From Candidatus Hydrogenedentota bacterium (lineage in GTDB: Bacteria > Hydrogenedentota > Hydrogenedentia > Hydrogenedentales > SLHB01), in assembly GCA_013359265.1 (NCBI GenBank), contig JABWCD010000005.1, forward strand, positions 73,678-137,677: a stretch of 64,000 nt of DNA. The letters run 5' to 3'. Each line of letters opens with the position of its first letter. Within the stretch, counting starts at the first letter, position 1. A program made the position numbers and the translations under genes. Shown one piece after another: positions 11,957-33,873 of the stretch. The notes under the pieces were generated by a model. The model saw nothing but the letters and a program-made list of their open reading frames with translations, was not told the origin of the DNA and did no database searches.

Positions 11957-12047
11957 GATGCGCCAGTATACCGAATGAGCGGAGCGAATCGGAACGAAAA
12001 TGGGCGGCCACGTTTGGCCGCCCATAAAATCGATCACGAGTGCCGGT

Positions 12048-13664: not shown

Positions 13665-14083
13665 GAGGACAGACCTCCTTCGTGGGCCGGGAGCGGTTGA
13701 CGGCGCATTGGCTTGCATTTACCTAAGAGTAGGTAACACCCGGGCCGAAACGCTCACAACCGTGCGGGCACCTTGCAGATTCCGACTCCAAAACCGTGAA
13801 TTCACTATAGCAGAGGGTACGATCTGTGGCAAGGGGGGCGCCCAGTCCAATCGCGAGCGAATTGCGCGTTGCCGGCCGCTCACAGAGCGTGTGTCTACCG
13901 GGTGTCGAGCGCCCGCGACTCGACGAACTGCAAGAGTCGCGCCGTCGGTTTCCATCTCGCTGTATCGTAGCGACGACGTCTTTAATGTTCGTGGAAGCAG
14001 CATGACAAGCCGGCGGAGCACCGGTGCACCAAGTGGGACGACAGAGGTCGGACCTGCGGCATAATCGCGTCTGCCGCAAATTG

Positions 14084-19265: not shown

Positions 19266-21467
19266 ATGAGTACAGGGAATCATTCTGCGTTGGGTGGCGC
19301 CACTGCGTCACGTGTCCTTTTGGTCCTTTCCTTTTCTGCGCTTTCCTTGCTTGCCGCGGCAGACGACTTCGCCCCGCGCGTTGAAATACTCACGCGCCAC
19401 GTTCAGCGCCTGCACGCCATCACCGTGCCCGATGCGGATGCGCCAACTAAGGCGGAAAAACTGAAGCAACTCGAAGACGCCGTGGCGAAGGGGGCGGCAA
19501 ATTCCGAAGAGTTTATCGCGCTGTACAATCAGATTGACGACGTCCGAATGTGGCTCTGGTCCCACGCGACGGACCAACCACGTATCGCCGCGGGGAGCTT
19601 TGCGGAATCGGACGGCGCCTGGACGATATCCGCGCCTTCCCTCACGGTGACGCTGGCGAAATCCGACCTTGGAATAACGGTGAAGACGCCGGAGGCCGCA
19701 TGGCAGTTCGCGCCGTGTGAGGACCGCGACATCGTCATGCCGGGAAAGGCGATTGGGCTGCTCAAGGCGGGCGCGCGCAATGTCGAGGAATTCCGCACGG
19801 GGTACAGCGTGGGGCTTATCGCAGTTTTCTCGGAATTTGCGGAAGCGCCCGGATTGGAAGTTCGGCTTTGTCTAAACGTAATTGGCAACGCATTGGTGTG
19901 CGAGTTCATCGCGACCGACGACGGGCAGACCTTTACGGACGTGTACTGGCCGAAGGCGATCGTCACCGGAATCACCGCCAACGATGTTGCCGTGATTCCG
20001 CACATGCAGGGCATGCTGTTGCCCGGCGACTGGCACCAGGAGATCAAACAACATAGTCTCGTCAATTCACGCACGCTTTACATGCCGTGGTGGGGACATC
20101 TTGCGAACGGCGTGCGCGGCGCGGGGCCCGGTGTCGTCGCGATTATCGAGACGCCCGACGACGCGGGCGCCGATTACAGACACGCACCGGGAGGGCCTAC
20201 GGTGGTTGCGCCGTATTGGGCGCCGAGCCTCGGCAAAATGCGGTACCAGCGCGTCATCCGCTATATCTTTGACGACGACGCGACCTACGTCACGCTTGCG
20301 AAGCGCTATCGACAACACGTGCAGGAAACAGGGCGTTTCGTATCCCTGTCGGAAAAGGCGCTGCGTACGCCCAATGTGAACGAAGTGATCGGACGTCCCG
20401 TGATTCACATCGGGGCCCTCTATCACTTCGTGCGCGAAGCGTCGCTATTCAATAAGGAACGCATTGAGAACAACCACGGCCTTACGACGTTCGAGGAACT
20501 GGCGAACGGCTTGAACGAATTGAAAGTGCGCGGTGTGGAGGACGCGTACATCCACCTCGACGGTTGGGGCTTCTACGGCTATGACAATGGACACCCCGAC
20601 GTGTTGCCGCCCGGCGAGGAGCAGGGGGGATGGGACGGCCTGCGCGCGTTCGCGGACACGTGCGATCGGCTCGGCTACCTTTTTGCCGTGCACGATCAGT
20701 ACCGCGATTTTTACCTCAACGCCGTGTCGTTCGACGATCGCCTCGTGGCGTACCGATTCGATGGCACCTGCGAACAGCATTCGACGTGGTGCGGCGGTCC
20801 GCAGACGATTCTCAACCCGCGTTTCGCTCCGGACTATGTGCGCCGCAACCATGACCTGTTCGCCGCGAACGGCGTGCAGGTGAAGGGCGCCTATCTCGAC
20901 GTGTTCTCGATCGTGCCGATCGAGGAAAGCAGCGAGAAATCGCACCCCGTCTCGCGCAGCGAATGCGCGCGCTATCGCGCGGACTGTTTCGATCTGCTCC
21001 GTGCGCGCGGTTACGTGGTGAGTTCAGAAGAACCAACGGACTACCTGGCGCCGCACATCGATCTGGTCCATCACGGCCCGTACGCGACGTACCCGAACAT
21101 TGGCGGTGGCGATGCGCGCGGCATCCCCGTCCCGCTATGGAACCTCGTCTATCATGACGCGCTACTGCTGCCGTGGGACATGGGCGAGAACGGCGGTTGG
21201 GGCACGCCGGCCGGCGACGCGGGATACCTGCACTGCTTCCTGAACGCGGGCCTGCCGTATCTGGGACTTGGGGCGGGCCCGGACCAGATTGCGCGCATGA
21301 AAGAGGCGTGCGCACTTAATCAACGCTGCGCCACGAGCGATATGGTGTCGCACGAGTTTCTGGACGATGCGTACCGTCAACAGCGCACGACCTACAGCGA
21401 CGGCACGACAGTCACGATTGACTTCGCTGCAAAGTCCTACACGATTGAGCCACCGGCCAATGGCTGA
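19266..21467 (+). CDS. Secreted protein, putative TIM-barrel glycoside-hydrolase-like enzyme
   Basis: Start ATG at 19266 gives a signal peptide (ASRVLLVLSFSALSLLAAAD). Motifs IHLDGWG and HDQYRDF are typical of sugar-active barrels. The upstream in-frame extension overlaps the opposite-strand gene and is rejected. Confidence 0.4.
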   Translation: MSTGNHSALGGATASRVLLVLSFSALSLLAAADDFAPRVEILTRHVQRLHAITVPDADAPTKAEKLKQLEDAVAKGAANSEEFIALYNQIDDVRMWLWSHATDQPRIAAGSFAESDGAWTISAPSLTVTLAKSDLGITVKTPEAAWQFAPCEDRDIVMPGKAIGLLKAGARNVEEFRTGYSVGLIAVFSEFAEAPGLEVRLCLNVIGNALVCEFIATDDGQTFTDVYWPKAIVTGITANDVAVIPHMQGMLLPGDWHQEIKQHSLVNSRTLYMPWWGHLANGVRGAGPGVVAIIETPDDAGADYRHAPGGPTVVAPYWAPSLGKMRYQRVIRYIFDDDATYVTLAKRYRQHVQETGRFVSLSEKALRTPNVNEVIGRPVIHIGALYHFVREASLFNKERIENNHGLTTFEELANGLNELKVRGVEDAYIHLDGWGFYGYDNGHPDVLPPGEEQGGWDGLRAFADTCDRLGYLFAVHDQYRDFYLNAVSFDDRLVAYRFDGTCEQHSTWCGGPQTILNPRFAPDYVRRNHDLFAANGVQVKGAYLDVFSIVPIEESSEKSHPVSRSECARYRADCFDLLRARGYVVSSEEPTDYLAPHIDLVHHGPYATYPNIGGGDARGIPVPLWNLVYHDALLLPWDMGENGGWGTPAGDAGYLHCFLNAGLPYLGLGAGPDQIARMKEACALNQRCATSDMVSHEFLDDAYRQQRTTYSDGTTVTIDFAAKSYTIEPPANG

Positions 21468-21479
21468 ATCGTCGCTCCG

Positions 21480-21746
21480 CTAACGAGATTGTGCCTCGAT
21501 ATAAGAGCGCAGCACGGCATTGATTCGTGTCTGATATCCCCGCCCTTGTTTGCGGAACCATCCCAGTACATCCGGGTCGATGCGTATCGAGACTAGTTCC
21601 TTGGGTTTGGGTAAGCGCACTTCCATCCGCTTGAACACCCTCGGATCGATCTCCGGCGCCTCGCCCAGATCGATCTCATTATCGGGCATGGAGGCGAGCT
21701 TTCTCCATTTTGTCCTAGACTTTTTCGTGGTAGATTTTTTCTTCAC
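21480..21746 (-). CDS. brnA: BrnA/DUF4415-family antitoxin of a type II BrnT/BrnA module
   Basis: C-terminal DPDVLGWFRKQGRGYQTRINAVLRSYIEA is a BrnA/DUF4415 signature. GTG start at 21746. Overlaps the upstream brnT remnant by ~32 nt. Confidence 0.75.
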   Translation of the reverse strand: MKKKSTTKKSRTKWRKLASMPDNEIDLGEAPEIDPRVFKRMEVRLPKPKELVSIRIDPDVLGWFRKQGRGYQTRINAVLRSYIEAQSR

Positions 21747-21991
21747 GTTTTGTCGCCTTTCGCGCGGATACGATGCGGATCGAGTCCGTGTCCCGCTCTA
21801 CAAACACGACTACGGCGACGATTGACTTGAGTATTCCGAATCCCAAACCATCTATCTTCCCCGTAGTCCTTGCGATCATCCAAGAACAGCACCATTGGGT
21901 GTTGAAACATGGTCGGTACATCAACAAAATCAATTCCGTGTTTGCGAATGTTCATTCGATTTTTTGCTTCGTCCCATTCGTAAACGATTTC
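21715..21991 (-). pseudogene. brnT: brnT (DUF497 ribonuclease toxin) pseudogene: frameshifted and missing a start codon
   Basis: The N-terminal part EIVYEWDEAKNRMNIRKHGIDFVDV...DRWFGI is in one frame; the C-terminal part KSIVAVVVFVERDTDSIRIVSARKATKREEKIY is in the -1 frame. The conserved EWDEAK opening follows a TAG directly, with no in-frame ATG/GTG/TTG before it. Confidence 0.7.
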
Positions 21992-22096
21992 CTATAGTGT
22001 AGATACAATTTGTATTGATATCAAGGGCGGGTATGCGGGGGATGCACCTGTCGAGTGCGTTTGACGATCCGGAGAACACAGCGCTACGCTGGCGGC

Positions 22097-23092
22097 ATGA
22101 AAGTCGTGGCAGGAGGCGGCCCGAAAATCAGCGGGCATCTTACTATTGATCCCTTTGCCCCGGCATATCTCGCCTTACACGAATCTGGCGCACTTTCGGC
22201 GCGGGTCGAGCGGGCGCTTGCCGAGTTGCGCGATTGCTGCGCGTGTCCGCGGAATTGTCATGTCAACCGCATGGCGAACGAAACGAAAGTGTGCAACACC
22301 GGGCGCTACGCGCGCGTCGCCAGCGCATTTCCGCATTTTGGGGAAGAGGATTGCCTTCGCGGACGCAAGGGATCGGGGACCATCTTCTTTGGTTTGTGCA
22401 ACCTGCGCTGCGTGTTTTGCCAAAACTGGGACATCAGCCAGAAGGTGTCGGGCGCGGAGATGACCGCGGACCAAATCGCGGACGTGATGATCGAATTGCA
22501 GGGCTACGGTTGTCACAACATCAACTTCGTCACGCCGGAGCACGTCGCGCCGCAGGTCATTGAGGCCGTTGCGGCGGCCGTGCCGCGAGGCCTTCGCCTG
22601 CCGATTGTGTACAACACGAGCGCGTACGACTCGGTATCGTCGCTGCGGTTGCTCGACGGCCTCATCGATATCTACATGCCGGACTTCAAATTCTGGGAGC
22701 GCGAAACCGCGAAGCGGCTGTGCAAGGCGAAGGACTACCCTGATCGCGCGCGCGAAGCCATCGCGGAAATGCACCGGCAAGTCGGGGTGCTCAAGTTTGG
22801 CCCTGATGGCATGGCGCGGCGCGGCGTGCTTGTGCGTCATCTCGTCATGCCCGGACAAACGGCGGAAGCCGCGGCCATTTTTCGATGGCTCGCCAATGAA
22901 CTCTCGCCGGATACCTACGTCAACATCATGGGACAGTATCACGTTGACTACCAGGTCGGCTCCATCGCCAGCAATGGCACGGCCAAGTACACCGACATCG
23001 AACGTCGCGCCACCGACGCGGAAATGCGCGATGCTTTCGCCGCTGCGCGGGATGCCGGCCTCTGGCGTTTCGACGCACGCTGGCTCCCATGA
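22097..23092 (+). CDS. Radical SAM protein, PflX-like (putative glycyl-radical/other enzyme activase)
   Basis: CNLRCVFCQNW is a CxxxCxxC motif. The N-terminal Cys cluster CCACPRNCHVN is typical of the COG1313/PflX family. Confidence 0.7.
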   Translation: MKVVAGGGPKISGHLTIDPFAPAYLALHESGALSARVERALAELRDCCACPRNCHVNRMANETKVCNTGRYARVASAFPHFGEEDCLRGRKGSGTIFFGLCNLRCVFCQNWDISQKVSGAEMTADQIADVMIELQGYGCHNINFVTPEHVAPQVIEAVAAAVPRGLRLPIVYNTSAYDSVSSLRLLDGLIDIYMPDFKFWERETAKRLCKAKDYPDRAREAIAEMHRQVGVLKFGPDGMARRGVLVRHLVMPGQTAEAAAIFRWLANELSPDTYVNIMGQYHVDYQVGSIASNGTAKYTDIERRATDAEMRDAFAAARDAGLWRFDARWLP

Positions 23093-23175
23093 ATACCCGC
23101 CTGTGGTTTGTACCGCGAACGCGCCCCAAGTAGGATTGCGCTCGCAGTGCACGTGGGAAAATTGGAGAGGCGCAG

Positions 23176-24132
23176 GTGCAGATTCGGAAAGCCGTTATTA
23201 CCGCGGCGGCGCGCGGGTCCCGGTTGTATCCCGCCGCGGATACGGTGCAGAAAGCGATGTTGCCGCTGGTGGACCGCGATGGTCTCACCAAGCCGGTGAT
23301 TCAGATCATCGCGGAAGAGGCGATTGAAAGCGGTATCGAGGAGATTGTAGTCATTTGCGCGCCGGGCGACGAGGCGAACTACCGGCGGCAGTTTCAGTCG
23401 TTGCGCGAGAATCTGCTCGAAGCGTACCGGGGCGCGGAGTGGGCGCGTCTGCAATCCGAAAAGATCGCCAGCCTCGAAGGCCGCCTGCGGTTTGCCGTTC
23501 AGGATGAACCGTTGGGATACGGCCACGCCGTCAGTTGCGCGCGGCCTATCGTGGGCGACGAGCCGTTTCTCCTGCTGCTCGGCGATCACTTGTACGTATC
23601 GCAAATCGAGGGCAAGCGCTGCGTCGAGCAACTGGTCGAGTTGGCGCAGCGCGAGGACTGCGCCGTCGCCGCAGTTCAGGCGACGCGCGAACATCTTGTT
23701 GGCCGCTACGGCACGTTGACGGGTAAGCGCCAGCAGGGCGCGCCCGGCATCTACCAAATCGATCGCATTATCGAGAAGCCGTCGTTGAGTCAGGCCGAGT
23801 TGGAACTGCACACACCGGGCCTGCGCGTCGGGCACTATCTGTGCTTCTTCGGCATGTACGTGCTCACGCCGTCCCTGTTCGCCATTCTCGACGAGGCGCT
23901 GCATTCGAGCAGCGAAAAGCACGACGTTGCGTTGACGCCCGCCTTGCAGGAATTGGCGCGCCGAGAACGGTTCCTTGCGCTGGAACTAAAGGGCACGCGC
24001 TACGATATCGGCGCAAAGTTTGGCCTGCTGCAAACGCAACTCGCGCTCGCGCTCGCGGGCGCGGACCGCGAGGAGATGATGACGGTTGTCCTTGAACTGC
24101 TCGCGGAATCCGCGCGCCGCTCGAAGCACTAG
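23176..24132 (+). CDS. UTP--glucose-1-phosphate uridylyltransferase-like sugar nucleotidyltransferase
   Basis: GalU-type N-terminus (ITAAARGSRLYPAADTVQKAMLPLVD), GTG start preceded by GGAGAGG; 318 aa. Confidence 0.65.
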   Translation: MQIRKAVITAAARGSRLYPAADTVQKAMLPLVDRDGLTKPVIQIIAEEAIESGIEEIVVICAPGDEANYRRQFQSLRENLLEAYRGAEWARLQSEKIASLEGRLRFAVQDEPLGYGHAVSCARPIVGDEPFLLLLGDHLYVSQIEGKRCVEQLVELAQREDCAVAAVQATREHLVGRYGTLTGKRQQGAPGIYQIDRIIEKPSLSQAELELHTPGLRVGHYLCFFGMYVLTPSLFAILDEALHSSSEKHDVALTPALQELARRERFLALELKGTRYDIGAKFGLLQTQLALALAGADREEMMTVVLELLAESARRSKH

Positions 24133-24428
24133 TGGTTCATACTATTTGTTCGAGCGAGTGCATTCCACGCCGCCTTGGGAAGAGGAATCTCAAATCTCAG
24201 ATTTGAAACCTCAAATGGGAGAGGACATCGGGAGTCAGGAGTTGGAAGTCAGTAGCCGGGAGTCAGGCGTGATGCGTCACGATTCGGGGATCCAATCGAT
24301 CCGGACAAAATGGATCGGGGGAAAAGTGCCGCCGCGTTTCGACGGGCGCAGAACTGCGGCGCGCCTCGAGACGCCGCTGTACGCCAGCCACGCGCAATTC
24401 CGAATGGAACGAGCCACTAGGCCGTAGC

Positions 24429-27400
24429 ATGGACCCTTTTATCGAGACCATCACCAGCGACCAGTCCGTCGTGCGCGAACGCGCGTTCCGCGAACTGTGC
24501 GAAGGCAAGAGCGTGGCCGAACTGTTGCAGTCCTGCGCCGAGTTGGAAACGTTCCGCCGAAAGTCCGACAACCTGTACGAGCGCGTACGCGCGACCTTGT
24601 TCCTGTATGCGGCGCACCGGTTCTATCTGTCCGAGGCGCGCGAGTTACCCGAGGCCGGCGCAGTTCCGTTTGCCGCGGTGCGCGATCTGCACGAGCGGCG
24701 CTTCGAGGAAGCGATTGCGCAGTTCCGCGCGGCACAGCAGGCTAGCGGCGCAAACGGCGCGCTGATGAGCGCCTTGGCCGAAGGTTACCACCATCTCGCG
24801 TTCCAGACGCTCGCGGACCAGGTGCGCCGCAGCGTGCGCGGGAGCCGCGGCAACCAATGGATGTTTCGCGTCGGACACGCCGACAACCATCCGGTCCGAA
24901 TTCGGCCCGAACTCTTGCGCCGAAGCGACGGCTCGATCTTGTATCCCGTGCTCACCGAGCGAACGCCGGTACGGCTGGACCTCAGCCATAGCGGCTGGTC
25001 CGACATATTTTTTCTCGGCATGGATTATCCCGAAGGCGCGCGCGTGGTGAACATTAGCGTTGACCTCGGGGTATACGGCCGCGACACGGACGTTCGCCCG
25101 CCGGTCGAAGCGCATGTACGTGTGATACCCGAACCGGTACTGCGAATTTCGAGCATCGATCTCGGTGTGACGAAGGACATCGTGGACCTCGTCGATCTCT
25201 TCAACTTTGGGAATGACTATCTCAGCCTCGTGAAAGCCGGGGTTATCGCGTCCGGGCTGGTGCCGGCTTCTTTCGAAGGCACTCACCATTCCGTTGCCGC
25301 GGTTCTTGCGTCTGTCGTCGGTCCGGGAATGGGGATTGAGCTAGTCACGAAAGTAAACGACATTCCGAAAGGGTCGCGTCTCGCGGTATCTACAAACCTC
25401 CTCGCGAGCATTGTCAGCGTGCTCATGCGCGCGACGGGACAGACCGCGTCGCTCGAGGGCGGGCTGACCGAGAGCGAACGGAGGCTGGTGGCTTCGCGCG
25501 CGATTCTCGGCGAGTGGCTTGGGGGTAGCGGGGGCGGGTGGCAAGACAGCGGCGGTGTGTGGCCGGGTATCAAGGTCATCGAGGGCGCGCCCGCGAAGGA
25601 AGGCGAACCGGAATTCGGCATCAGCCGCGGCTGTCTTTTGCCGCGGCACCATGTGCTGGGCAAAGACGAAGTCCATCCGGAATTCACGGAGCGATTTGCG
25701 CAGTCGCTGGTGTTGCTCCATGGCGGCATGGCGCAGGACGTTGGGCCGATCCTGGAAATGGTCACGGAGAAGTATTTGCTGCGTTCCGCGGACGAATGGC
25801 GCGCCCGGCAACACATGCGCGCAATATTCGACGGCATACTTACGGCGCTGCGGAAAGGCGACGTGAAATCGCTCGCGACGCACACCACACAAAACTTCGA
25901 CGGGCCTTTGAGGACCATAATTCCCTGGGTGACGAACTATTTTACCGAAACGATTATTTCGCACGCGCGGGCCGCGCTTGGGCGGAACTATTGGGGATTC
26001 CAGATGCTCGGCGGCATGTCCGGCGGGGGCATGGCGATGTACGTTGCACCGGAGGCGCACGCGGAATCGCGCGATCGAATTCTCGATATCATGCGCGCGG
26101 CGAAACTTGGCGTCGATGACGCGCTTCCCTTCGCGATGGAGCCGGTCGTGTACGATTTCCGGATCAACGAGCGGGGTACGTGGGCGACACTGCACGCCGG
26201 CGAAGATGCGATGATGCCGTCGCGGTACTATGCGCTCCAGGTACCGGAACTGGTGCGCCATTCGGCCGACGCGTTGCCGTACTTGCGCCGGGCGGAACTC
26301 GATCACTTCACCGCGAGCAGCAAGGAACCGATCGAGACCTTCGGCCTCCTGCGTACAATCGTCAGCAATTTGTTCCGCGTCGCGAACCCGGCATCTCGTT
26401 CAGAGCGTATCGAGTGGGACCGGGAATCCGAGGCGATCAAGGCGCAGAACGGCTTCGACGTCGTGCAGCACGAGCAGATTCGCGCAGACTTGAGGGCAGG
26501 CCGCATCGGGCTCGCGCATAATCGCATGTCGGTGGAGACCGCCATTGACGATGTGCTTGACGCAGACGTCGCCAAGCTCTCTGACCAGACAAAGCACGCT
26601 TCACGCGGCGAGCGCGCACTGCGCGAAGGCCGCGTCGCCGTGCTGTCCCTTGCGGGCGGCGTGGGCAGCCGATGGACCACCGGGGCGGGTGTCATCAAGG
26701 CGTTGAATCCGTTCGTCAGCATTGCCGGGAAACATCGCAGTTTTCTCGAAATTCATTTGTCAAAGTCACGCGCAACCGCGCAGAAATATGGGGCACATCC
26801 GCCTCACATCGTTTCGACCAGTTTTCTCACGCACGCGCCCATCGAGCGCCACCTTGCAGCGTCGCAGCACTTCGGATACGGCGGTCCAGTGCACTTATCG
26901 CCGGGCCGATCGATTAGCCAGCGGCTGGTGCCGATGGTGCGCGACCTCGTTTTCCTCTGGGAAGAGATGCCGCAGGAAACGCTCGACGAGCAGAAGCAAA
27001 AAGTGCGCGAGGCCGTGCACGGAGCGCTGACGCAGTGGGCGCGCGACGCAGGCGAAGGCAGCGACTACGCCGACAACGTGCCCATCCAACGCTTCAATCC
27101 GCCCGGCCACTGGTACGAGGTTCCAAACCTTTTCCGAAACGGCGCGTTGGCGCGGTTGCTGCGCGAGCGTCCAAACGTCGAGACCATCATGCTGCATAAC
27201 ATCGATACGCTTGGCGCCGATTTGGACCCCGCTGCGCTTGGCTGTCACCTCGAATCCGGCAACGTCCTCACGTTCGAGGTGGTGCCGCGGCGCATCGGCG
27301 ACAGCGGCGGCGGTCTTGCGCGGGTGGGTGGGCGCGTGCGCCTGCTCGAAGGCCTCGCCCAACCGCGCGAGGAAGACGAGTACAAACTCCGGTACTACAA

Positions 27401-27764
27401 TTCGATGACAACATGGATTCAAATCGATCCGCTCCTGAATGTGTTCGGCCTGACGCGCGACGACTTAAACGGGCCGGAGGAATTCATCGCCGAGGCCGTG
27501 CGCAGAATGGCGCAGCGTTTGCCCACGTACGTAACCATCAAGGACGTGAAGAAGCGCTGGGGCCACGGACAAGAGGATGTGTACCCCGTGGCCCAGTTTG
27601 AGAAGTTGTGGAGCGATATGAGTGGACTCCCGGATGTCCGCTGCGGATTTCTCGCGGTACCGCGTTTGCGCGGGCAACAACTCAAGGACCCCGCCGAACT
27701 TGACCCGTGGGCGAACGACGGCAGCAAAGACCACGTCGCGTCCCTGTGCGTGTTTGACGCGTGA
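24429..27764 (+). CDS. 1111-aa fusion protein: N-terminal GHMP-kinase-like region plus C-terminal UDP-sugar pyrophosphorylase (UDPGP)-like nucleotidyltransferase
   Basis: Degenerate GHMP motif II (IPKGSRLAVSTNLLASIVSV) and a C-terminal GHMP glycine block (LGGMSGGGMAMYV) in the first ~550 aa. A UDPGP-type motif LSLAGGVGSRWTTGAG lies around residue 700. Confidence 0.5.
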   Translation: MDPFIETITSDQSVVRERAFRELCEGKSVAELLQSCAELETFRRKSDNLYERVRATLFLYAAHRFYLSEARELPEAGAVPFAAVRDLHERRFEEAIAQFRAAQQASGANGALMSALAEGYHHLAFQTLADQVRRSVRGSRGNQWMFRVGHADNHPVRIRPELLRRSDGSILYPVLTERTPVRLDLSHSGWSDIFFLGMDYPEGARVVNISVDLGVYGRDTDVRPPVEAHVRVIPEPVLRISSIDLGVTKDIVDLVDLFNFGNDYLSLVKAGVIASGLVPASFEGTHHSVAAVLASVVGPGMGIELVTKVNDIPKGSRLAVSTNLLASIVSVLMRATGQTASLEGGLTESERRLVASRAILGEWLGGSGGGWQDSGGVWPGIKVIEGAPAKEGEPEFGISRGCLLPRHHVLGKDEVHPEFTERFAQSLVLLHGGMAQDVGPILEMVTEKYLLRSADEWRARQHMRAIFDGILTALRKGDVKSLATHTTQNFDGPLRTIIPWVTNYFTETIISHARAALGRNYWGFQMLGGMSGGGMAMYVAPEAHAESRDRILDIMRAAKLGVDDALPFAMEPVVYDFRINERGTWATLHAGEDAMMPSRYYALQVPELVRHSADALPYLRRAELDHFTASSKEPIETFGLLRTIVSNLFRVANPASRSERIEWDRESEAIKAQNGFDVVQHEQIRADLRAGRIGLAHNRMSVETAIDDVLDADVAKLSDQTKHASRGERALREGRVAVLSLAGGVGSRWTTGAGVIKALNPFVSIAGKHRSFLEIHLSKSRATAQKYGAHPPHIVSTSFLTHAPIERHLAASQHFGYGGPVHLSPGRSISQRLVPMVRDLVFLWEEMPQETLDEQKQKVREAVHGALTQWARDAGEGSDYADNVPIQRFNPPGHWYEVPNLFRNGALARLLRERPNVETIMLHNIDTLGADLDPAALGCHLESGNVLTFEVVPRRIGDSGGGLARVGGRVRLLEGLAQPREEDEYKLRYYNSMTTWIQIDPLLNVFGLTRDDLNGPEEFIAEAVRRMAQRLPTYVTIKDVKKRWGHGQEDVYPVAQFEKLWSDMSGLPDVRCGFLAVPRLRGQQLKDPAELDPWANDGSKDHVASLCVFDA

Positions 27765-29500
27765 CCACGCGCGGCGCGTTTGCGCGGTACGGCGCATGGG
27801 TCCCGCTGGCTATCGCCGCTGCATTGGCGGCGACGGGCCTGGGCACGGGTTTTGTCGGCGACGACGCGTATCACCTGCTGATTCTCCATGGCGAGCGCAC
27901 GCCATCGGTTGACGGCAATCTCTATTCGTTCATGTCCGGCGATCCCGAAGTTACGCAACAGTTCATCGAATCCGGACCGTATCCGTGGTGGACATGGCCT
28001 GAAGCGAAGGCCGTTTTTTACCGCCCCCTGACGGTCGCGCTGCAACGGCTGGACTTTGCCGTGTTCGGAAACCATGCCGTGTATTGGCATATCCACGGGA
28101 TCGCGTGGTATCTCGCGATGGTCTATGCATGGATTCTGATCGCGCGCAGATCGCTCTCCGCGCCGATTGCCTTTCTCGCGGCGATCCTGTTCGCGATCGA
28201 CGAATCCCATTGGATGCCCGCGGTCTGGATCGCGAACCGTAACGCGGTTGTTGCGTGTGTGCCTGCGTTGTTCGGTCTATACGCGCACCTGCGATGGCGG
28301 GAAAACGGTTGGAAGCCGGGCCTTCCACTTTCCATCGCCGGATACGTTCTCGGCATGTTCGGGGGCGAAGCCTGGCTCGGGATGGCGGCGTACGTGGCGG
28401 CGTATGAACTGTTTCACACGCGCGAAACGATAGCGCGCCGGTTCCTGCACCTCGCTCCCGCGGCGACCTGTGCCATCGCGTACGCTGTCGCGTACAAACT
28501 CTCGGGCTACGGCGCGTACGGTTCGGGCAGCTATACCCAACCGCTCAGTGCGTTGTACTTCTCCGAAGCGCCGGGGCGCATACTCGCGCTGATCGGCGGT
28601 CTGCTCCTCTCCTCGCCGGTCGATGCGTGGGCATTTTTCCCGCAACTGCGCTGGGCGCTCATCGCCATTGGAATATTCTCCCTCATCCTATTCTCCGGCT
28701 TGTTGCACCGGTGCTGGCCCGGGCTGGACGAGCGCGACCGCGCTGCGCTGCGCTGGCTCATACCCGGCGGAATCCTGTCGCTCCTTCCGGTGATTGCCGC
28801 ATTTCCGATGGGCCGTCTCCTGCTCGGGCCGTCGCTTGCGGGCAGCGCAGTCGTCGCCGTGTTACTGCGCCACTGGTGGATGACCCGGCGGAAACGGCGC
28901 ATTCAACTCGCAGGTGTCGCGTGCGCGGCGCTTGCGTTTGTCCACATCGTAGTCGCCACCATTGCGTGGCCCGCGCAGTCCGCGATTATCACGTTTATCG
29001 GGTATTGGGCCGATCGCGTTTTTCTCGAGGCGCCGATCGACGACGCGCGCGTTTCCAGGCAGAAGGTTTTCCTGCTCGCCGCGCAGGACCCGTTCACATT
29101 GATGTATCCGCCCATCGTTCGTCGGCTGAAAGGCAAGCCTTTGCCGGAGGGATGGCACGCGCTATCCGCCTCGATGTCGGACCATGTGTTTACGCGCACT
29201 GGGGCGAACTCGTTCGAGTTCGAGTCCGCGCGCGGACCGCTCGTGGACGGCGTATTCGCGGACATCTTGCGGGGCCCTGACCATCCGCTCGCGGAGGGCG
29301 ACACGGTCAGCCTCGGCGATGCGCGGATCATTGTGCTCGATGTTATCGACGGAAGGCCGAGGAAGATTCGCGTCGAGTGCGACCAGCCGCTCGATGGTCC
29401 GCGGTACGTGTTTCTGCAATGGATCGATTACCGGCTGCAACTGTTCCCGTTACCACCGGTGGGCGAGTCGCGGGTTGTCAGGTACGCTAAAGCAAATTGA
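27761..29500 (+). CDS. Polytopic membrane protein, GT-C-like glycosyltransferase architecture
   Basis: GTG start overlaps the upstream TGA (GTGA). About 11 TM helices, followed by a soluble ~170-aa C-terminal domain. Confidence 0.45.
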   Translation: MTTRGAFARYGAWVPLAIAAALAATGLGTGFVGDDAYHLLILHGERTPSVDGNLYSFMSGDPEVTQQFIESGPYPWWTWPEAKAVFYRPLTVALQRLDFAVFGNHAVYWHIHGIAWYLAMVYAWILIARRSLSAPIAFLAAILFAIDESHWMPAVWIANRNAVVACVPALFGLYAHLRWRENGWKPGLPLSIAGYVLGMFGGEAWLGMAAYVAAYELFHTRETIARRFLHLAPAATCAIAYAVAYKLSGYGAYGSGSYTQPLSALYFSEAPGRILALIGGLLLSSPVDAWAFFPQLRWALIAIGIFSLILFSGLLHRCWPGLDERDRAALRWLIPGGILSLLPVIAAFPMGRLLLGPSLAGSAVVAVLLRHWWMTRRKRRIQLAGVACAALAFVHIVVATIAWPAQSAIITFIGYWADRVFLEAPIDDARVSRQKVFLLAAQDPFTLMYPPIVRRLKGKPLPEGWHALSASMSDHVFTRTGANSFEFESARGPLVDGVFADILRGPDHPLAEGDTVSLGDARIIVLDVIDGRPRKIRVECDQPLDGPRYVFLQWIDYRLQLFPLPPVGESRVVRYAKAN

Positions 29501-29514
29501 AAATGTTGCGTAGC

Positions 29515-29860
29515 TGTGCTCTCGTTTTCGTGCTCGTTTTCGTGCTCGTAATCGTAATCGCAGACTCGATCCGCACCGAAACCTACGGGACATACCGGCT
29601 ACGACCTTTCTTGAATCGCGCGAGCACAATTCGAGAATTCTCTTAGCTGCGGGCGCGGGCATTGGTCGGTCATGAAGCCAAACACCCGATTACGATTACG
29701 AAGACGATTACGATTACGAGTCACAATGGGGCATGGATCCACCCAAACGAATTCAGATTCATGGAATGGATGGACGGGATAGACACGATGGACGGCACTA
29801 AGGACGAATGCCGATTATCGATTACGATTACGAGCACGATTACGAGCACGAGCACGAAAA
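29515..29860. repeat. Hexamer-repeat element: three arrays of CGATTA/CGAGCA-type hexamers, with the outer two in inverted orientation
   Basis: Left array 29515-29562 is (TCGTTT/TCGTGC/TCGTAA)n. Middle array 29687-29720 and right array 29812-29860 are (CGATTA/CGAAGA/CGAGCA)n, i.e. the reverse complement of the left array. Confidence 0.6.
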
Positions 29861-29887
29861 TGCGGCTACCTGGTTACTGAAATTGCT

Positions 29888-31264
29888 CTAGCCCGTGACG
29901 GCGCGCTGGCGCTGACGCGGGCGCTGCGTGCGATCCCACAACGGCGCGACGTTGCGCGCGTTCCACGCGTCCCAATCTGCCTGCAGTTCCTTCACCACTT
30001 CCGGCATTTCCGCCGCGAGGTTCTTGTCTTCGTGAATGTCTCTTGTAAGGCTGTACAACGCGAGCGGCTCTTCCGCCTGCTTCACCAGCTTGAAGTCGCC
30101 TTTGCGGATTGCCATGTTTTCGCCTTGCCGCCAGTACAAGGCGTCATGCGGCGCGCCGGACGCTTTGCCGTTGAGATAGGGGAGGAGACTCACGCCTTCG
30201 CATTTCGCCGACGCGTCGAGTGTCCCGCCCGCCGCCGCGATCGCCGTCGGCAAAATGTCGAGCGAATTGACCGGCTGCGAATAAGTGACGCCCGCGGGAA
30301 TTTGCCCCGGCCATTGCATCATGTATGGCACGCGTATGCCGCCCTCGAGCACCTGTCCCTTGAACCCGCGCAGCGGATCGTTCTTCGACGAGATTTGCGC
30401 CGTCGGCCCGCCATTGTCGCTGATGAAAATCACGAGCGTGTCACCGGTCAGCCCGTTCGCGTTGAGCGCGCCGAGGATGCTGCCAACGCCGGCATCGAGT
30501 GCCGACAACATTGCCGCAAACTTCCTGCGCTTTTCGTCCGAAATCGAAGCGAACGGCGCCAAATAGTTTTCCAGCGCGTCCATCGGGGCATGCACCGCGT
30601 TGAACGGCATGTACAGAAAGAATGGATGGTCCTTGTGCCGATTGATGAAATCGCACGCCTCACGCGCGAAGTCGTCGGTCGTGTAGCTGATCTCCTTCAC
30701 GGCCTCCCGCCCGCGCAGGATTGGGTTTTTCGCATCCGCGCCGGCGTTCACATACGAATGCGCGCCACCGAGGAACCCATAGTATTCGTCAAACCCGCGG
30801 TCCATCGGGTGGAACCCATCCTGTCCGCCGAGGTGCCACTTACCAACCATTCCCGTTGCGTACCCGAGCTGTTTCATGCGCTGCGGGAACGTCGTTTCCG
30901 ACAGGGGCAGTCCGACGTTCTTCGCCTCCGTGCCGGCTGGACCGGGATTGAACTCATGGCCAAAGCGCTGCTGGTATCGACCCGTCATCAGGCCTGCGCG
31001 CGTGGGACTGCATACCGGACACGTCACGTACCCGTCCGTGAATCGCACGCCGTTCTTGGCGATGGAATCGATATTCGGCGTCAGGATGTCTTTCGAGCCT
31101 TGCGCACTCAACTCGCCATACCCGAGATCGTCCGCGACTATGAGCACGACGTTCGGCTTTCTGCGCGCGGCGGTCGCGGTAGCGGTGGTCGTGCACCCCG
31201 CGCCGTTTATCGCGGCAGCGACCCCAAACGCACCGCACAGCGAAATGAATTGGCGTCGATTCAT
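29888..31264 (-). CDS. Arylsulfatase (formylglycine-dependent, Cys-type), secreted
   Basis: CSPTRAGLMTGR active-site motif; a RRQFISL TAT-like signal; start placed at the ATG at 31264. Confidence 0.85.
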   Translation of the reverse strand: MNRRQFISLCGAFGVAAAINGAGCTTTATATAARRKPNVVLIVADDLGYGELSAQGSKDILTPNIDSIAKNGVRFTDGYVTCPVCSPTRAGLMTGRYQQRFGHEFNPGPAGTEAKNVGLPLSETTFPQRMKQLGYATGMVGKWHLGGQDGFHPMDRGFDEYYGFLGGAHSYVNAGADAKNPILRGREAVKEISYTTDDFAREACDFINRHKDHPFFLYMPFNAVHAPMDALENYLAPFASISDEKRRKFAAMLSALDAGVGSILGALNANGLTGDTLVIFISDNGGPTAQISSKNDPLRGFKGQVLEGGIRVPYMMQWPGQIPAGVTYSQPVNSLDILPTAIAAAGGTLDASAKCEGVSLLPYLNGKASGAPHDALYWRQGENMAIRKGDFKLVKQAEEPLALYSLTRDIHEDKNLAAEMPEVVKELQADWDAWNARNVAPLWDRTQRPRQRQRAVTG

Positions 31265-31879
31265 GTCAAGTCTCCGTATTGGTCCATGCCGCTTGAAACT
31301 TTTGGCAGGTCTATAGCGCAGACCCCGCCAAAGGGGTGACTGTCCCCGCGCCACCCCGTATATTAAATGGCACGAGCCAGAAGTTTCTTGAAGAGCACTG
31401 GGGACATGCGGAATCGTAGTCCGATCACCACTCCGTTGCAACACACCTCCACGGCGGCCATGTAGCCATTCGAAGAGAGAGTTTTTCGAACGCTACGCAT
31501 TTGAGCCGGTACGACCGGAGTCGGCGGCTCCAGGCATCCGCCCTCCGAAAAGGAGTGTCACTTCTTAGGGGAATGTATTGCACCCGCGAAGCGGGAATTG
31601 CCGCTCGAGAAATTGAAACAAAGGTGTGTGGCGATTAAGACTAATGGTCCCCGTCAATGGATTTTGTTGATGTTTGTAGCGCCCGGTCTCCGTGCCGGGC
31701 GGAATTCCACGTGACTGGAACCGCCAAATTCAAATGACGCAGACCACTGGCGCAACTTCACGTGATACGCGGTCGTGGGCAGAAACTGCGCTTCGGAGGT
31801 TTGTGGCAGGATATTGTCGCGCCGAGCCATGGGTACCATCGCAAAAGTGAATATCCACTCAAATCGAGCAGAATCGGAC

Positions 31880-32965
31880 ATGTCCCGCCGCGAGTTTCTC
31901 GCTGCGGGAGGTAGCCTCGCGTTGACGGCGGGCCTGGCATATGCCGCATCAGGACCGGAGCGGCACGGCGGCGACGCCGATCTCCTCGCAAAACTCTGCA
32001 CGCCAAACAAGCACCCGGAGCTTGTGCTTGCACCGTCCTACGAAGCCGGCTCCTACGACGCGTTGGCAATCGATTGTCCGTTTGTTTTCGCCGCGGACGG
32101 TCTGTACTACATGGTCCACATCGGCTTCGATGGCATCGGCTACCGGACGGGACTGGCCCATTCAAATGACCTGATTCATTGGAAGAAAAAGGGCCTCATT
32201 CTCGATCGTGGCGAAGCGGGGTCGGTCACGGAATACAACATCGCGTTGACGTGGATCGTCCGCGACAACGACTTGTTCGGTACCGGCGCATTGAAACGTG
32301 TTCAAGGCCGCTACCTTGGCACCTATCACGCCTATCCCAAACCGGGGTACGAAACCGGACCTGCGGTGATCGGACTGTGTTGGAGCGACGACTTGCGCGA
32401 ATGGACCATCGAGCCGCCCTGCCTCAGCGCATCGGACACTTCGGCGGGTCCGTGGGAACAAGGCGGTCTATACAAGTCGTGTCTCGTAGAAGAGAGTGGC
32501 ACGTACTACATGTTCTATAACGCAAAAACGAAAACCGAGCCGTGGATCGAGCAAACCGGTGTGGCGATATCCGCGGACCTCAAGACCTGGCGGCGTTTCG
32601 AGCGCAATCCGATCCTGCCCGTCGGACCCCGCGGCGCGTTCGACGATGTTTTCTGCAGCGACCCTGCCGTGGTTCGCGTCGGCGAAACGTGGGCCATGTT
32701 CTTCTACACCCTCGGCAGCGACGGCCGTGCGCGGGATTCCGTAGCGTTCTCCGGCGACCTCTTCGCATGGCGCAAAAGTAACGAGATTTTGATCGATGTC
32801 GGCCCGCCGGGCGCCGTCGACTCCCGATACGCACACAAACCGTCCGTCATTGTCAAAGACGGCACGCTCTACCACTTCTATTGCGCCGTCTCGCCTATGC
32901 CCGAACGAACCATCGGCGATCACAAACAGACCGAACGCCGCGGCATAGGCGTCGCCACCTCGTAA
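31880..32965 (+). CDS. Secreted beta-propeller glycoside-hydrolase-like protein (GH43/GH130 clan-like)
   Basis: TAT signal SRREFLAAGG; repeated aromatic/Asp blades (YYMFYNAKT, WAMFFYTLGSDG). The family assignment is approximate. Confidence 0.45.
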   Translation: MSRREFLAAGGSLALTAGLAYAASGPERHGGDADLLAKLCTPNKHPELVLAPSYEAGSYDALAIDCPFVFAADGLYYMVHIGFDGIGYRTGLAHSNDLIHWKKKGLILDRGEAGSVTEYNIALTWIVRDNDLFGTGALKRVQGRYLGTYHAYPKPGYETGPAVIGLCWSDDLREWTIEPPCLSASDTSAGPWEQGGLYKSCLVEESGTYYMFYNAKTKTEPWIEQTGVAISADLKTWRRFERNPILPVGPRGAFDDVFCSDPAVVRVGETWAMFFYTLGSDGRARDSVAFSGDLFAWRKSNEILIDVGPPGAVDSRYAHKPSVIVKDGTLYHFYCAVSPMPERTIGDHKQTERRGIGVATS

Positions 32966-33026: not shown

Positions 33027-33530
33027 CTAAGGCGCGTCTAGCGACCGAAATGTTGCGAGTGGGAGGAACAAGTGCGACGAATGATCGTGGAATTGCTGGA
33101 ATCCATATTTCTGGTAGAACTGCGTCGCGCGTTCGTCGATCGCGTGAACCTCTACGGCAAGAATCGCCATTTGGTCCGCGATTCGCGCTACCCGTTTGAG
33201 CGCATCGACGAGGAGCGTCTGCCCGAGGCCTCTCCCCTGAGCGGTCTTATCTACGGCAAGCTTGCCAATCAATGCCACGGGCAAGGGATACTTGGGTAAC
33301 TTCTTCCGCAGCTCTTCCGGCATATTCTCGAACGCAACGGAGGAGGCAGAAAGTGTGTAATACCCGACGACGGTCGTTTCTCCGGGGTGTACGGCCACAA
33401 ACGTGCGGCCAATGTGTTTGCGTTCGTGCTGCCCTGCATATCTGCGAATATATTCGTCGAGCTGCCCGCGGCCACAGCGGAATTGTTGCCGAACGTGCCG
33501 AGGTCCCAACGGCTCGATGAGCCAACTCAC
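33027..33530 (-). CDS. GNAT-family N-acetyltransferase toxin (TacT/KacT-like) of a type II TA pair
   Basis: GNAT acetyl-CoA motif (QGRGLGQTLLVDAL). Its start overlaps the stop of the upstream DUF1778 antitoxin gene by 4 nt. Confidence 0.65.
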   Translation of the reverse strand: MSWLIEPLGPRHVRQQFRCGRGQLDEYIRRYAGQHERKHIGRTFVAVHPGETTVVGYYTLSASSVAFENMPEELRKKLPKYPLPVALIGKLAVDKTAQGRGLGQTLLVDALKRVARIADQMAILAVEVHAIDERATQFYQKYGFQQFHDHSSHLFLPLATFRSLDAP

Positions 33531-33793
33531 CTCAATCGGCGCTTTTGGTGTGACTTTACGGCATCTCGCAGCGCCTTATTCGGTCTGGGCGGTGCATCGA
33601 GCAACTTTAGGAAGAGGTCGCGATCCCTGTCGGACAGCACGACTTGTGCATGTTCGGCAACTACCTTACCCGCCTCGTCCAGCAGCGTCGCGACGACAAA
33701 CTGGGTGACGGTTTGGTTTCGCAATTCAGCTGCCTGTTGGATCAACGTTTTCGAATCCGCATTCAGTCGGATATCGAGTCGTGTCGCGTTCAT
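33527..33793 (-). CDS. DUF1778 (TacA-like, RHH) antitoxin
   Basis: MNATRLDIRLNADSKTLIQQAAELRNQTVTQFVV is the canonical DUF1778 N-terminus; start at the ATG at 33793. Confidence 0.65.
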   Translation of the reverse strand: MNATRLDIRLNADSKTLIQQAAELRNQTVTQFVVATLLDEAGKVVAEHAQVVLSDRDRDLFLKLLDAPPRPNKALRDAVKSHQKRRLR

Positions 33794-33873
33794 GCTTTGC
33801 TCCGAAGGCCCTAACGCCGGGCGCAGTATACCACGCTGTACGGCAATTTGCCGCACAAACCTTGTCTGTACGA

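Follow-up and report, generated by a model that had tools for sequence, protein, structure and literature searches.

A conserved two-gene cassette encoding a predicted GHMP kinase–UDPGP fusion protein and a GalU-like partner in Candidatus Hydrogenedentota and other bacteria

The locus

The window analysed here is a stretch of 64,000 nucleotides from a Candidatus Hydrogenedentota bacterium (GenBank assembly GCA_013359265.1, contig JABWCD010000005.1, positions 73,678 to 137,677 of the forward strand). It contains a gene for a protein of 1111 residues in which, according to sequence profiles and a predicted structure, a sugar-1-kinase of the GHMP type is genuinely joined to an enzyme of the UDP-sugar pyrophosphorylase (UDPGP) type. 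This fusion gene is preceded by a gene encoding a GalU-like nucleotidyltransferase, which we call the partner, and followed by the gene of a membrane protein whose predicted fold is that of the C class of glycosyltransferases (GT-C); a radical S-adenosylmethionine (SAM) gene lies upstream of the three (Table 1). We find that the core of the locus is a cassette of two genes, the partner and the fusion, which is conserved over about ten phyla, and we propose that its products convert a free monosaccharide into a nucleotide sugar.

An earlier reading of the sequence, made by a model (the original prediction), had described the partner, fusion and membrane protein genes as a three-gene operon. The same-strand arrangement on which it relied is present, and so is the GTGA overlap: the GTG start codon of the membrane protein gene overlaps the TGA stop codon of the fusion gene. 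The motif II region of the kinase, the glycine block GGMSGGGMAM and the nucleotidyltransferase motif LAGGVGSRW are also found in the fusion protein where the original prediction had placed them.

In the window 296 nt separate the partner gene from the fusion gene, a detail that the original prediction does not mention; the closest relative (locus L001) has about 9 nt at the same position. This spacer contains no repeat found elsewhere in the window and has no counterpart in any of the relative loci that were fetched. An Rfam scan of positions 21400-30000, which include the spacer, gave nothing credible: the sole match (23870-24105, upstream of the spacer) has an E-value of 0.34 and lies below the gathering score. 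Scanning the locus for promoters and terminators gave no informative signal. A role in defence was considered and dropped, the PADLOC models having given no match for the three genes.

Table 1. Features of the locus. Positions are those of the window; residues (aa) are those of the fusion protein.
Feature	Position	Strand	Basis or remark
Radical SAM gene, 345 aa	22055-23092	+	Pfam Radical_SAM
Partner gene, divergent GalU-family nucleotidyltransferase, 318 aa, type A	23176-24132	+	Pfam NTP_transferase
Spacer between partner gene and fusion gene, 296 nt	24133-24428	+	Far above the median gap of the relatives
Fusion gene, 1111 aa	24429-27764	+	Open reading frame, homologues, AlphaFold2 model
N-domain, all-helical, aa 1-170	24429-24938	+	AlphaFold2 helices, weakly TPR-like
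Predicted GHMP-type anomeric sugar kinase domain, FKP/HddA branch, motif II PKGSRLAVST, aa 171-595	24939-26213	+	NCBIfam, PDB, Foldseek
Motif II region PKGSRLAVSTNLLAS, aa 313-327	25365-25409	+	
Glycine block GGMSGGGMAM, aa 528-537	26010-26039	+	
Helical linker, aa 596-735	26214-26633	+	AlphaFold2; low-confidence loop 636-655
Predicted UDPGP-fold sugar-1-phosphate nucleotidyltransferase domain, aa 736-1111	26634-27764	+	Pfam UDPGP, PDB, Foldseek
LAGGVGSRW, aa 741-749	26649-26675	+	
GTGA overlap	27761-27764	+	
Gene of GT-C-fold polytopic membrane protein, 579 aa, C-terminal beta-rich domain	27761-29500	+	AlphaFold2/Foldseek

A two-gene cassette

Fusion loci were confirmed in at least 589 species-level genomes. 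The comparisons below are based on the best 80 of these at least 589 loci (from a scan with one genome per species), whose fusion proteins are 56-80% identical to that of the window. These 80 loci belong to Hydrogenedentota, Nitrospirota, Bacteroidota (Hymenobacter, Spirosoma, Larkinella, Pontibacter, Adhaeribacter, Mucilaginibacter, Chitinophagaceae and Saprospiraceae), Planctomycetota (Singulisphaera, Tautonia and Paludisphaera), Verrucomicrobiota, Chloroflexota, Acidobacteriota, Armatimonadota and Lentisphaerota; Sumerlaeota and Omnitrophota appear among the protein matches of the fusion protein.

The partner gene lies directly upstream of the fusion gene, on the same strand, in 76 of the 80 loci, over about ten phyla. 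Two of the four loci that have no upstream partner are cut by contig ends, so that the count is 76 of 78 informative loci; in the other two a different gene lies upstream. Partner and fusion genes are typically separated by 17.5 nt (median, n = 74); in 45 of the 74 cases the gap does not exceed 30 nt, and nine are overlaps. An outlier whose fusion protein is 47% identical to that of the window also has the partner, with a 4-nt overlap. Partner and fusion protein diverge in parallel (Spearman coefficient 0.79).

No third conserved gene was found, either by all-against-all clustering of 4165 neighbouring open reading frames or by tallying the Pfam families of the downstream genes. The other large clusters of neighbours are shadow reading frames inside the fusion gene, and no other real family is present in more than seven loci; the genes that follow the cassette have no constant strand, size or family. 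The locus has as its core the pair made of the partner and the fusion, and not the set of three that had been taken as the functional unit: the GT-C gene adjoins the cassette only within Hydrogenedentota, and the radical SAM gene in only one relative. Since there is no third conserved gene, a kinase and a nucleotidyltransferase would make up a complete, minimal salvage route.

A GalE-like NAD-dependent epimerase/dehydratase is encoded downstream of the cassette in only four loci (L036, L048, L050 and L072), three from Planctomycetota and one from Chthoniobacteraceae (Verrucomicrobiota). This is consistent with a product that is a nucleoside diphosphate (NDP) sugar and is modified further.

The idea that the cassette is a mobile accessory module was rejected: no relative was found in viral contigs, and plasmids contributed a single copy, on a Hymenobacter megaplasmid, which looks disrupted and whose partner is annotated as 'sugar phosphate nucleotidyltransferase'.

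Architecture of the fusion protein

Clustered at 90% identity, the homologues of the fusion protein number more than 8000; the best 120 of them cover its full length (68-100% identity), and an identical protein is recorded from a metagenome-assembled genome of Candidatus Hydrogenedentes. Neither the fusion gene nor its neighbours are chance reading frames. In databases the family is named no more precisely than 'UTP--glucose-1-phosphate uridylyltransferase' or 'predicted kinase'. With 27 homologues as input, AlphaFold2 gave a model with a predicted local distance difference test score (pLDDT) of 88.7 and a predicted template modelling score of 0.88. Profile searches, sequence comparisons with the PDB and the AlphaFold/Foldseek results are concordant on an architecture in four parts: an N-domain, the kinase domain, a linker and the UDPGP domain.

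The N-domain matches no Pfam or NCBIfam family. It is modelled as helices 29-45, 49-67, 81-88, 92-106 and 110-138 (pLDDT of about 90), and a profile of it gives weak matches to tetratricopeptide repeats (TPR) in the PDB over residues 86-126 (E 9e-6). The linker contains a loop, 636-655, which is modelled with a pLDDT below 50 and is regarded as disordered; the linker is partly deleted in distant homologues. Its mean identity to the window protein over the 80 genomes is the lowest of the four parts (0.44, compared to 0.53 for the N-domain and 0.66 for both the kinase and the UDPGP domains).

The UDPGP domain

UDPGP (PF01704) is the sole Pfam domain detected in the fusion protein, where it covers residues 886-1005. 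The score is 45.2 bits with the whole protein and 44.8 bits with the isolated domain, for a cut-off of 22. A phmmer search of the PDB returned plant, yeast and fungal UDP-glucose pyrophosphorylases (UGPases; E from 1e-8 to 4e-6), and Foldseek matched the C-terminal part of the model to UAP1 (8yp3, E 3e-16) and to AGX1 and UGPase (E of about 1e-15), with template modelling scores (TM-scores) of about 0.6 to the target. The UDPGP-type pyrophosphorylase that had been proposed for the C-terminal part is therefore borne out both by Pfam and by structural comparison.

The characteristic motifs of the family are also found. GGxGS(R), PPGH, NxDxLGA, EVxxxxxDxxGG and YxNxxxxW align with those of the UGPases in the PDB (E 2e-9); in the window protein, GGVGSRW, PPGHW, HNIDTLGA and EVVPRRIGDSGGG align with the UGPases 8c0b and 7ppr. 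Residues G744, R748, K757, H894, D926, E950, D958, K1038, R1081 and K1086 are invariant in all 80 sequences, in which the fixed motifs of the domain are GGxGSRW, K757, PPGHW, HNIDTLGA, EV..R...D.GGG, K1038 and PRxRGQQLK. K1086 is the putative catalytic lysine, by analogy with the PRxRFLPVK motif of UGPases.

The GalU-like partner

The partner belongs to the Pfam family NTP_transferase (PF00483; 78.7 bits for a cut-off of 21.2), but it is not a GalU equivalog, as its score with the galU model TIGR01099 is 158.5 bits, compared to a cut-off of 326.8. Its best solved relative is YngB (7o2n, E 1e-40). The signature loop reads AAARGSR...QKAMLP where GalU has AAGLGTR...PKEMLP; in the window it reads AAARGSRLYPAAD...QKAMLP, which does not match the GalU signature GxGTRxLPxTK...PKEMLP. 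The window partner retains R16, K26, Q109, D137 and K201 (in EKP).

Two types of partner can be distinguished. In type A, which includes the window partner and those of Hydrogenedentota, Nitrospirota, Bacteroidota and Isosphaeraceae, the loop is ITAA(A/G)RGxRLYPxADTxQKAMLP, with Arg and Lys kept. In type B, found in Verrucomicrobiota, Chloroflexota, Acidobacteriota, Armatimonadota and Lentisphaerota, a deletion of eight residues removes the segment that bears the Lys. This Arg and this Lys act on the phosphates of the nucleoside triphosphate (NTP) in RmlA, GlmU and GalU. Both types keep the Gln that binds uracil, the GD site that binds Mg and the EKP motif, and both carry the family-specific insertions DRDG and PGLRxGxYLCFFG.

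The partner is probably best explained as a structural or regulatory subunit in a complex with the fusion protein, because type B partners have lost a catalytic residue and yet remain adjacent to, coupled to and co-evolving with the fusion protein. A partner that is retained although its catalytic site is eroded would make a tractable case of a pseudo-enzyme subunit.

The kinase domain

The kinase part of the NCBIfam FKP model (PRK13412/NF009948, model positions 610-943) matches residues 175-548 of the fusion protein with an E-value of 3e-21 to 3e-22. FKP is the L-fucokinase/GDP-L-fucose pyrophosphorylase of Bacteroides fragilis; its structures 9iip and 5yys are found by phmmer in the PDB (E of about 1e-10). 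Foldseek detects the two-lobe GHMP fold in the AlphaFold2 model, with the fucokinase of FKP (9iip, E 2e-18, TM-score of 0.80 to the target) and the heptose-7-phosphate kinase WcbL (4usk, E 6e-15, TM-score of 0.83) as matches. The fusion protein is not an FKP equivalog, since its whole-protein score with NF009948 is 74.9 bits, compared to a cut-off of 721.

The original prediction had placed a GHMP-type sugar kinase in the N-terminal half, and had envisaged that profile searches might show this half to be something else. The specific profiles and the predicted structure both detect the GHMP fold there. Splitting the protein into domains and searching each against Pfam, as had been recommended, succeeded with UDPGP and failed with GHMP_kinases_N and GHMP_kinases_C, neither of which matches the whole protein or the isolated domain at E ≤ 10. 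This failure is a matter of the sensitivity of the Pfam models, not of a missing fold, because the more specific profiles and the predicted structure do find the fold, and because a 32%-identical homologue of the same architecture (P0152) passes GHMP_kinases_N (27.8 for a cut-off of 22.3).

The catalytic residues of FKP have been described. Asp762 acts as general base, Arg592 together with Mg2+ stabilises the transition state and Glu751 is essential; the sugar is bound by Trp599, Asp601 and Gln761, and ATP-Mg by loop 712-720, which is rich in glycine, with Ser719 and Ser720 (PMC11982464). In the HMMER alignment R592, W599, D601, E751, Q761 and D762 of FKP correspond to R182, W190, D192, E362, Q372 and D373 of the fusion protein, S719 corresponds to S321 and S720 to T322. 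Motif I, TPVRLDLSHSGWSD, aligns with SPVRIDMAGGWTD of FKP and has the form PxRxDxxGGW(T/S)D, while the putative general base D373 lies in the sequence GGGWQD. All these residues, as well as R317 and the glycine block G528-G534, are invariant in the 80 sequences. Of the check that the original prediction had called for, the predicted structure showed the fold and the sequence alignment the complete set of catalytic residues, D373 included.

The sugar pocket is the same as that of FKP apart from the replacement of T602 by I193. Deducing the identity of the sugar from the pocket residues was considered and rejected as unreliable.

Motif II reads AGSGLGTSS in FKP and KGSRLAVST (PKGSRLAVST) in the fusion protein. 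The original prediction had considered this motif degenerate and the kinase possibly inactive. The variant motif is in fact invariant in the 80 genomes, except for L318 (L or F) and K314 (R in one case), which indicates that it does not result from decay. Distant homologues (30-35% identity) have GSGLAVST, with Gly at position 317, so that from these alignments Arg317 appears as a fixed feature of the main clade and not as a sign of erosion. Since motif II and all the residues equivalent to the catalytic residues of FKP are invariant, the kinase domain is probably active.

One may nevertheless consider that the GHMP-like domain is a non-catalytic ligand sensor which would exert allosteric control over the UDPGP domain, the partner or both, in which case the cassette would be a regulated UDP-glucose pyrophosphorylase. 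GalF, a regulatory paralogue of GalU, provides a precedent for such a regulatory role. The departure of motif II from PxGSGLGSS at two glycines and the failure of the Pfam GHMP models would fit this idea, as would the facts that the closest sequence relatives of the C-terminal domain are UDP-glucose pyrophosphorylases and that the partner is GalU-like. However, the invariance of Asp373, Arg182, Glu362, the Mg-binding Ser321 and glycine block III over about ten phyla is not expected of a mere binding domain, and some remote homologues have the near-canonical GSGLAVST, one of them passing GHMP_kinases_N. We consider this explanation improbable.

Remote homologues

Proteins that are 30-40% identical to the fusion protein have the same order of N-domain, kinase and UDPGP domain, a Gly at position 317 and no GalU-like partner; in the samples that were checked, Arg317 and the partner gene co-occur. 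One homologue, P0244, has the reversed order, with UDPGP before the kinase. The surroundings of these remote homologues are informative. ROK sugar kinases are fused to them or encoded beside them (P0140, P0146 and L092), an IMPase-family phosphatase is fused in P0140, and an NDP-sugar dehydrogenase is encoded beside the homologue of L087. In L093 the neighbours are a HAD hydrolase of the beta-phosphoglucomutase family and a protein whose C-terminal half is GmhA-like (SIS). P0152 (locus L081, 1-19048; 32% identity) is clustered with a B12-binding radical SAM gene, five more radical SAM genes, a GT2 gene and a xylose-isomerase-like TIM barrel, in what looks like a pathway for a heavily modified sugar.

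The giant proteins of this group (2318-3096 aa; L086, 8001-16820, and P0140) have the whole core inserted between a ROK kinase and an IMPase-family phosphatase domain, with N-termini that resemble signal peptides; their relatives P0134 and P0144 are from Omnitrophota.

All these contexts belong to the metabolism of sugars or NDP-sugars, and they support the biosynthesis of an NDP-sugar as what the family does in general. In the case of the remote clade they point to a route resembling that of heptose, which may involve an isomerase, a kinase acting on a sugar phosphate, a phosphatase and a nucleotidyltransferase. Extended to the main clade, this leads to a mechanism in which the kinase, like HddA or WcbL, phosphorylates C1 of a sugar 6- (or 7-) phosphate whose distal phosphate is bound by Arg317, a phosphatase encoded elsewhere removes that phosphate, and one of the two nucleotidyltransferases forms the NDP-sugar. 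WcbL is indeed the closest structural match over a whole target chain, Arg317 distinguishes the main clade from the remote one, and both the very high conservation and the scattered, housekeeping-like genomic contexts of the cassette would suit this mechanism, as would the remote homologues that are fused with, or encoded beside, candidate enzymes for the other steps. If it were correct, the cassette would link central metabolism to a nucleotide sugar by a mutase-independent path, and this would account for its housekeeping-like conservation. On the other hand, neither a phosphatase nor an isomerase is linked to the cassette in any of the 80 main-clade loci, the sugar pocket (W190, D192, Q372, D373) matches that of FKP, which acts on a free sugar, and the supporting contexts come from homologues of 30-40% identity that lack both R317 and the partner gene. 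We regard this bisphosphate mechanism as unlikely, though less so than a loss of kinase activity.

The membrane protein and the radical SAM gene

The AlphaFold2 model of the membrane protein has a pLDDT of 94.1, and its top 25 Foldseek matches are all of the GT-C type (AglB, PglB, STT3, ArnT, DPY19, PMT4, AftA/D and PimE), with probabilities of 0.96-1.0; the TM-scores are low, at 0.28-0.42 when normalised to the query and 0.19-0.44 when normalised to the target. Two aspartates, D34 and D35, follow the first transmembrane helix and are invariant in 39 homologues (25-71% identity); from the secondary structure they would be in the first extracytoplasmic loop. The score with Pfam PMT_2 is 17.2 bits, below the cut-off of 26.1. 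The family consists of about 105 clusters, mostly from Hydrogenedentota, and no homologue has a precomputed Pfam domain. The predicted fold, together with the invariant pair of aspartates, supports the assignment of this protein to GT-C at the level of the superfamily, in agreement with the GT-C-like protein of the original prediction.

Besides the window, L001, L082 and L089 have a GT-C gene of this family that overlaps the 3' end of the fusion gene; their GT-C proteins are 61%, 67% and 46% identical to that of the window, respectively. In L010, also from Hydrogenedentota, the same slot is occupied by an unrelated GT-C protein of the PMT_2 type (39.9 bits, 859 aa, 11318-13897), whose gene shares 18 nt with the 3' end of the fusion gene. 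No such gene is present in four other Hydrogenedentota loci or in any locus of the other phyla. Conversely, the GT-C protein also has homologues that are encoded away from the cassette: beside a PMT_2 protein, a GT2 and GT4s in L090, after an acetyltransferase and a HAD hydrolase in L083, and in unrelated contexts in L084 and L091. The link between the cassette and the GT-C gene is real, but it is confined to Hydrogenedentota, where the GT-C gene is a lineage-specific addition.

GT-C enzymes use donors that are linked to a polyprenyl phosphate, and not NDP-sugars. An intermediate glycosyltransferase encoded outside the locus would therefore be needed, since no polyprenyl-phosphate glycosyltransferase is present in the locus. 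This speaks against the direct hand-over, from a dedicated salvage enzyme to the membrane protein, which the original prediction had suggested.

It had indeed been imagined that the GalU-like protein, a kinase-dead fusion protein and the GT-C protein are encoded in a dedicated operon for the salvage of an unusual sugar and its transfer in the periplasm. The common strand, the GTGA overlap and the confirmed GT-C fold speak for this model, and so does the persistence of the order cassette–GT-C in Hydrogenedentota down to 46% identity of the GT-C protein, with an unrelated GT-C in the same slot of L010. As a general model it is refuted by the comparative data: the GT-C gene is not beside the cassette in 78 of the 80 genomes, and in four of the six Hydrogenedentota loci of the genome set, its homologues exist without the cassette, and the invariance of the catalytic residues speaks against a dead kinase. 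Considering in addition that the donor must be lipid-linked and that the linking enzyme is not in the locus, the three-gene model has little to recommend it, and we give it as small a chance as that of a non-catalytic sensor.

The radical SAM protein matches Pfam Radical_SAM (51.9 bits) and contains CNLRCVFC, that is CX3CX2C. In NCBIfam it gives weak matches to NrdG, PflA and AmmeMemoRadiSam, far below the cut-offs. An orthologue (80% identical) is present at the same position in L089 only and is absent from the 80 genome loci, so that this activase-like gene is not part of the conserved cassette.

Proposed mechanism

We favor a mechanism in which the kinase domain phosphorylates C1 of a free sugar and the UDPGP domain turns the product into an NDP-sugar, the partner being a second or regulatory subunit and the NDP-sugar feeding, in this lineage and indirectly, the glycosylation of the envelope by the GT-C protein. 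We give this mechanism as a whole a probability of about 0.55.

In the first step, ATP would phosphorylate the anomeric hydroxyl of a monosaccharide, with Asp373 as the general base and Arg182, Glu362 and Ser321 acting with Mg-ATP. The UDPGP domain would then use an NTP, UTP being the likeliest, to turn the sugar-1-phosphate into the NDP-sugar, with release of pyrophosphate. The helical N-domain and the GalU-like partner may form a complex with the fusion protein, as the coupling of the genes and the co-variation of the proteins suggest. In lineages like that of the window, in which the catalytic Arg and Lys are kept, the partner could be a second nucleotidyltransferase, while it would be a non-catalytic, GalF-like subunit where the segment that bears the Lys is deleted. 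In the subclade of Hydrogenedentota in which the GT-C gene is translationally coupled to the cassette, and to which the genome of the window belongs, the product probably feeds envelope glycosylation by way of a polyprenyl-phosphate sugar made by an enzyme encoded elsewhere.

Several observations weigh against this salvage mechanism. For a salvage enzyme, the identity of 56-80% that 1100 residues retain across phyla is unusually high and suggests a role that is more central, or more constrained, than simple salvage. The replacement of two glycines of the phosphate loop (G715 by R317 and G717 by A319, FKP numbering first) could change the ligand that is bound, and the kinase domain escapes the Pfam GHMP models. 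The mechanism leaves unexplained why a second nucleotidyltransferase-like protein should be needed beside the UDPGP domain, and it deduces the formation of a complex from gene coupling and co-variation. The neighbourhoods of the remote homologues, with an isomerase and a phosphatase, fit a sugar-phosphate substrate rather than a free sugar. Last, full-text literature searches returned no description of a bacterial GHMP-UDPGP fusion or of this family, and no characterised member.

A bolder proposal can be made, which we put forward as tentative and rather doubtful, while finding it a little easier to accept than the bisphosphate mechanism. The cassette may encode a hitherto unrecognised, heteromeric sugar-activation enzyme, 56-80% identical over about ten phyla, which would make either a nucleotide sugar new to bacteria or a common one (a UDP-hexose, for example) by a mutase-independent, kinase-based route. 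Arg317, in the phosphate loop of the kinase, and the GalU-like subunit would have co-evolved within a single mechanism, and in Hydrogenedentota the product would feed a new family of GT-C proteins that glycosylate the envelope.

Comparison with known systems

Like FKP, the fusion protein combines in one chain an anomeric kinase of the same GHMP branch and an NDP-sugar pyrophosphorylase, and the two proteins have catalytic and sugar-pocket residues in common. The order of the domains is different: the kinase precedes a UDPGP-fold pyrophosphorylase in the window, whereas FKP consists of an NTP_transferase/beta-helix part, a linker and then the kinase. The fusion protein also differs from FKP by its additional, TPR-like N-domain, by its motif II (KGSRLAVST) and by the obligatory GalU-like partner gene. 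The analogy with FKP in reversed domain order, which the original prediction had drawn, thus holds, with the qualification that the pyrophosphorylase has a different fold from that of FKP; the fusion has therefore occurred independently.

Natural fusions of a kinase and a pyrophosphorylase are known: FKP, the plant FKGP, AFKP80/FKP40 of Leishmania, and the zebrafish fusion (PMC11982464, PMC3938481). The latter is a glucuronokinase/UDP-glucuronic acid pyrophosphorylase, in which a GHMP sugar-1-kinase is joined to a UTP-dependent pyrophosphorylase and which functions in salvage (PMC3938481). It is an animal enzyme, and its pyrophosphorylase is related to the bacterial NTP_transferase type, not to UDPGP. 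What is new here, with respect to the known fusions, is the UDPGP fold of the pyrophosphorylase, the reversed order, the added N-domain, the fixed variant of the phosphate loop and the obligatory GalU-like partner.

The pair formed by HddA/WcbL and HddC, in the biosynthesis of GDP-D-glycero-alpha-D-manno-heptose, is similar in that a GHMP kinase of the same branch works with a separate nucleotidyltransferase of the GalU/RmlA type, and in that the remote homologues are encoded beside GmhA-like and HAD genes. Unlike this system, the main clade has no linked isomerase or phosphatase, and it has an extra UDPGP domain and an FKP-like sugar pocket. With the UDPGP enzymes (UGPase, UAP1/AGX1 and USP), the C-terminal domain shares the fold and the motifs GGxG(S/T)R, PGH, NxDxLGA, EV...D..GG and the C-terminal Lys, but it is fused behind a kinase, does not occur in a stand-alone context and is only about 15-19% identical to the solved members.

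The partner is of the same family as GalU and GalF and has retained the Gln for uracil, the Asp for Mg and the Lys of EKP, while type B partners resemble GalF as a non-catalytic paralogue; the partner differs by its score below the GalU cut-off, its altered Gly-rich loop, the insertions DRDG and PGLRxGxYLCFFG and its position beside the fusion gene. The membrane protein shares with ArnT, PglB/AglB/STT3, PMT and DPY19 the predicted fold and the acidic pair D34 D35 after the first transmembrane helix, but it has no Pfam family, its TM-scores to the solved members are low and its own family is small.

FKP-like bifunctional enzymes are widely used to make nucleotide sugars in one-pot syntheses, and the salvage routes that they define shape the glycans of the cell surface. 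The family described here would represent an independent invention of the logic of FKP on a UDP-type pyrophosphorylase fold, and it could yield a new biocatalyst. It is widespread and unusually conserved, and it has cultured carriers (Hymenobacter, Spirosoma, Pontibacter, Adhaeribacter and Singulisphaera). To identify its sugar would be to close a gap in carbohydrate metabolism for Bacteroidota, Planctomycetota, Verrucomicrobiota, Chloroflexota and Acidobacteriota, as well as for several candidate phyla.

Flanking genes

The genes around the locus hint at the degradation of glycans. Upstream, a DUF5696 protein (19269-21467) has a weak GH101-like match; downstream are a sulfatase and a beta-propeller protein resembling glycoside hydrolases, with weak GH130/43/32 matches (29888-31444, 31775-32965). 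A sulfatase gene is also found beside the cassette in L001 and L082.

Two toxin-antitoxin loci are also present. A BrnA-type antitoxin gene (21480-21746, - strand, in the region 21480-21955; Pfam 67 bits) is accompanied by an apparent BrnT toxin that is split between two frames, with its N-terminal part at 21743-21955 and its C-terminal part, which ends in RIVSARKATKREEKIY, at 21715-21933; the split reflects either a frameshift in the toxin gene or an error in sequencing. On the other side of the locus, a TacA-like antitoxin gene (33527-33856, - strand, Pfam 82 bits) overlaps a GNAT acetyltransferase gene (33027-33530), the two forming a toxin-antitoxin pair of the TacAT type.

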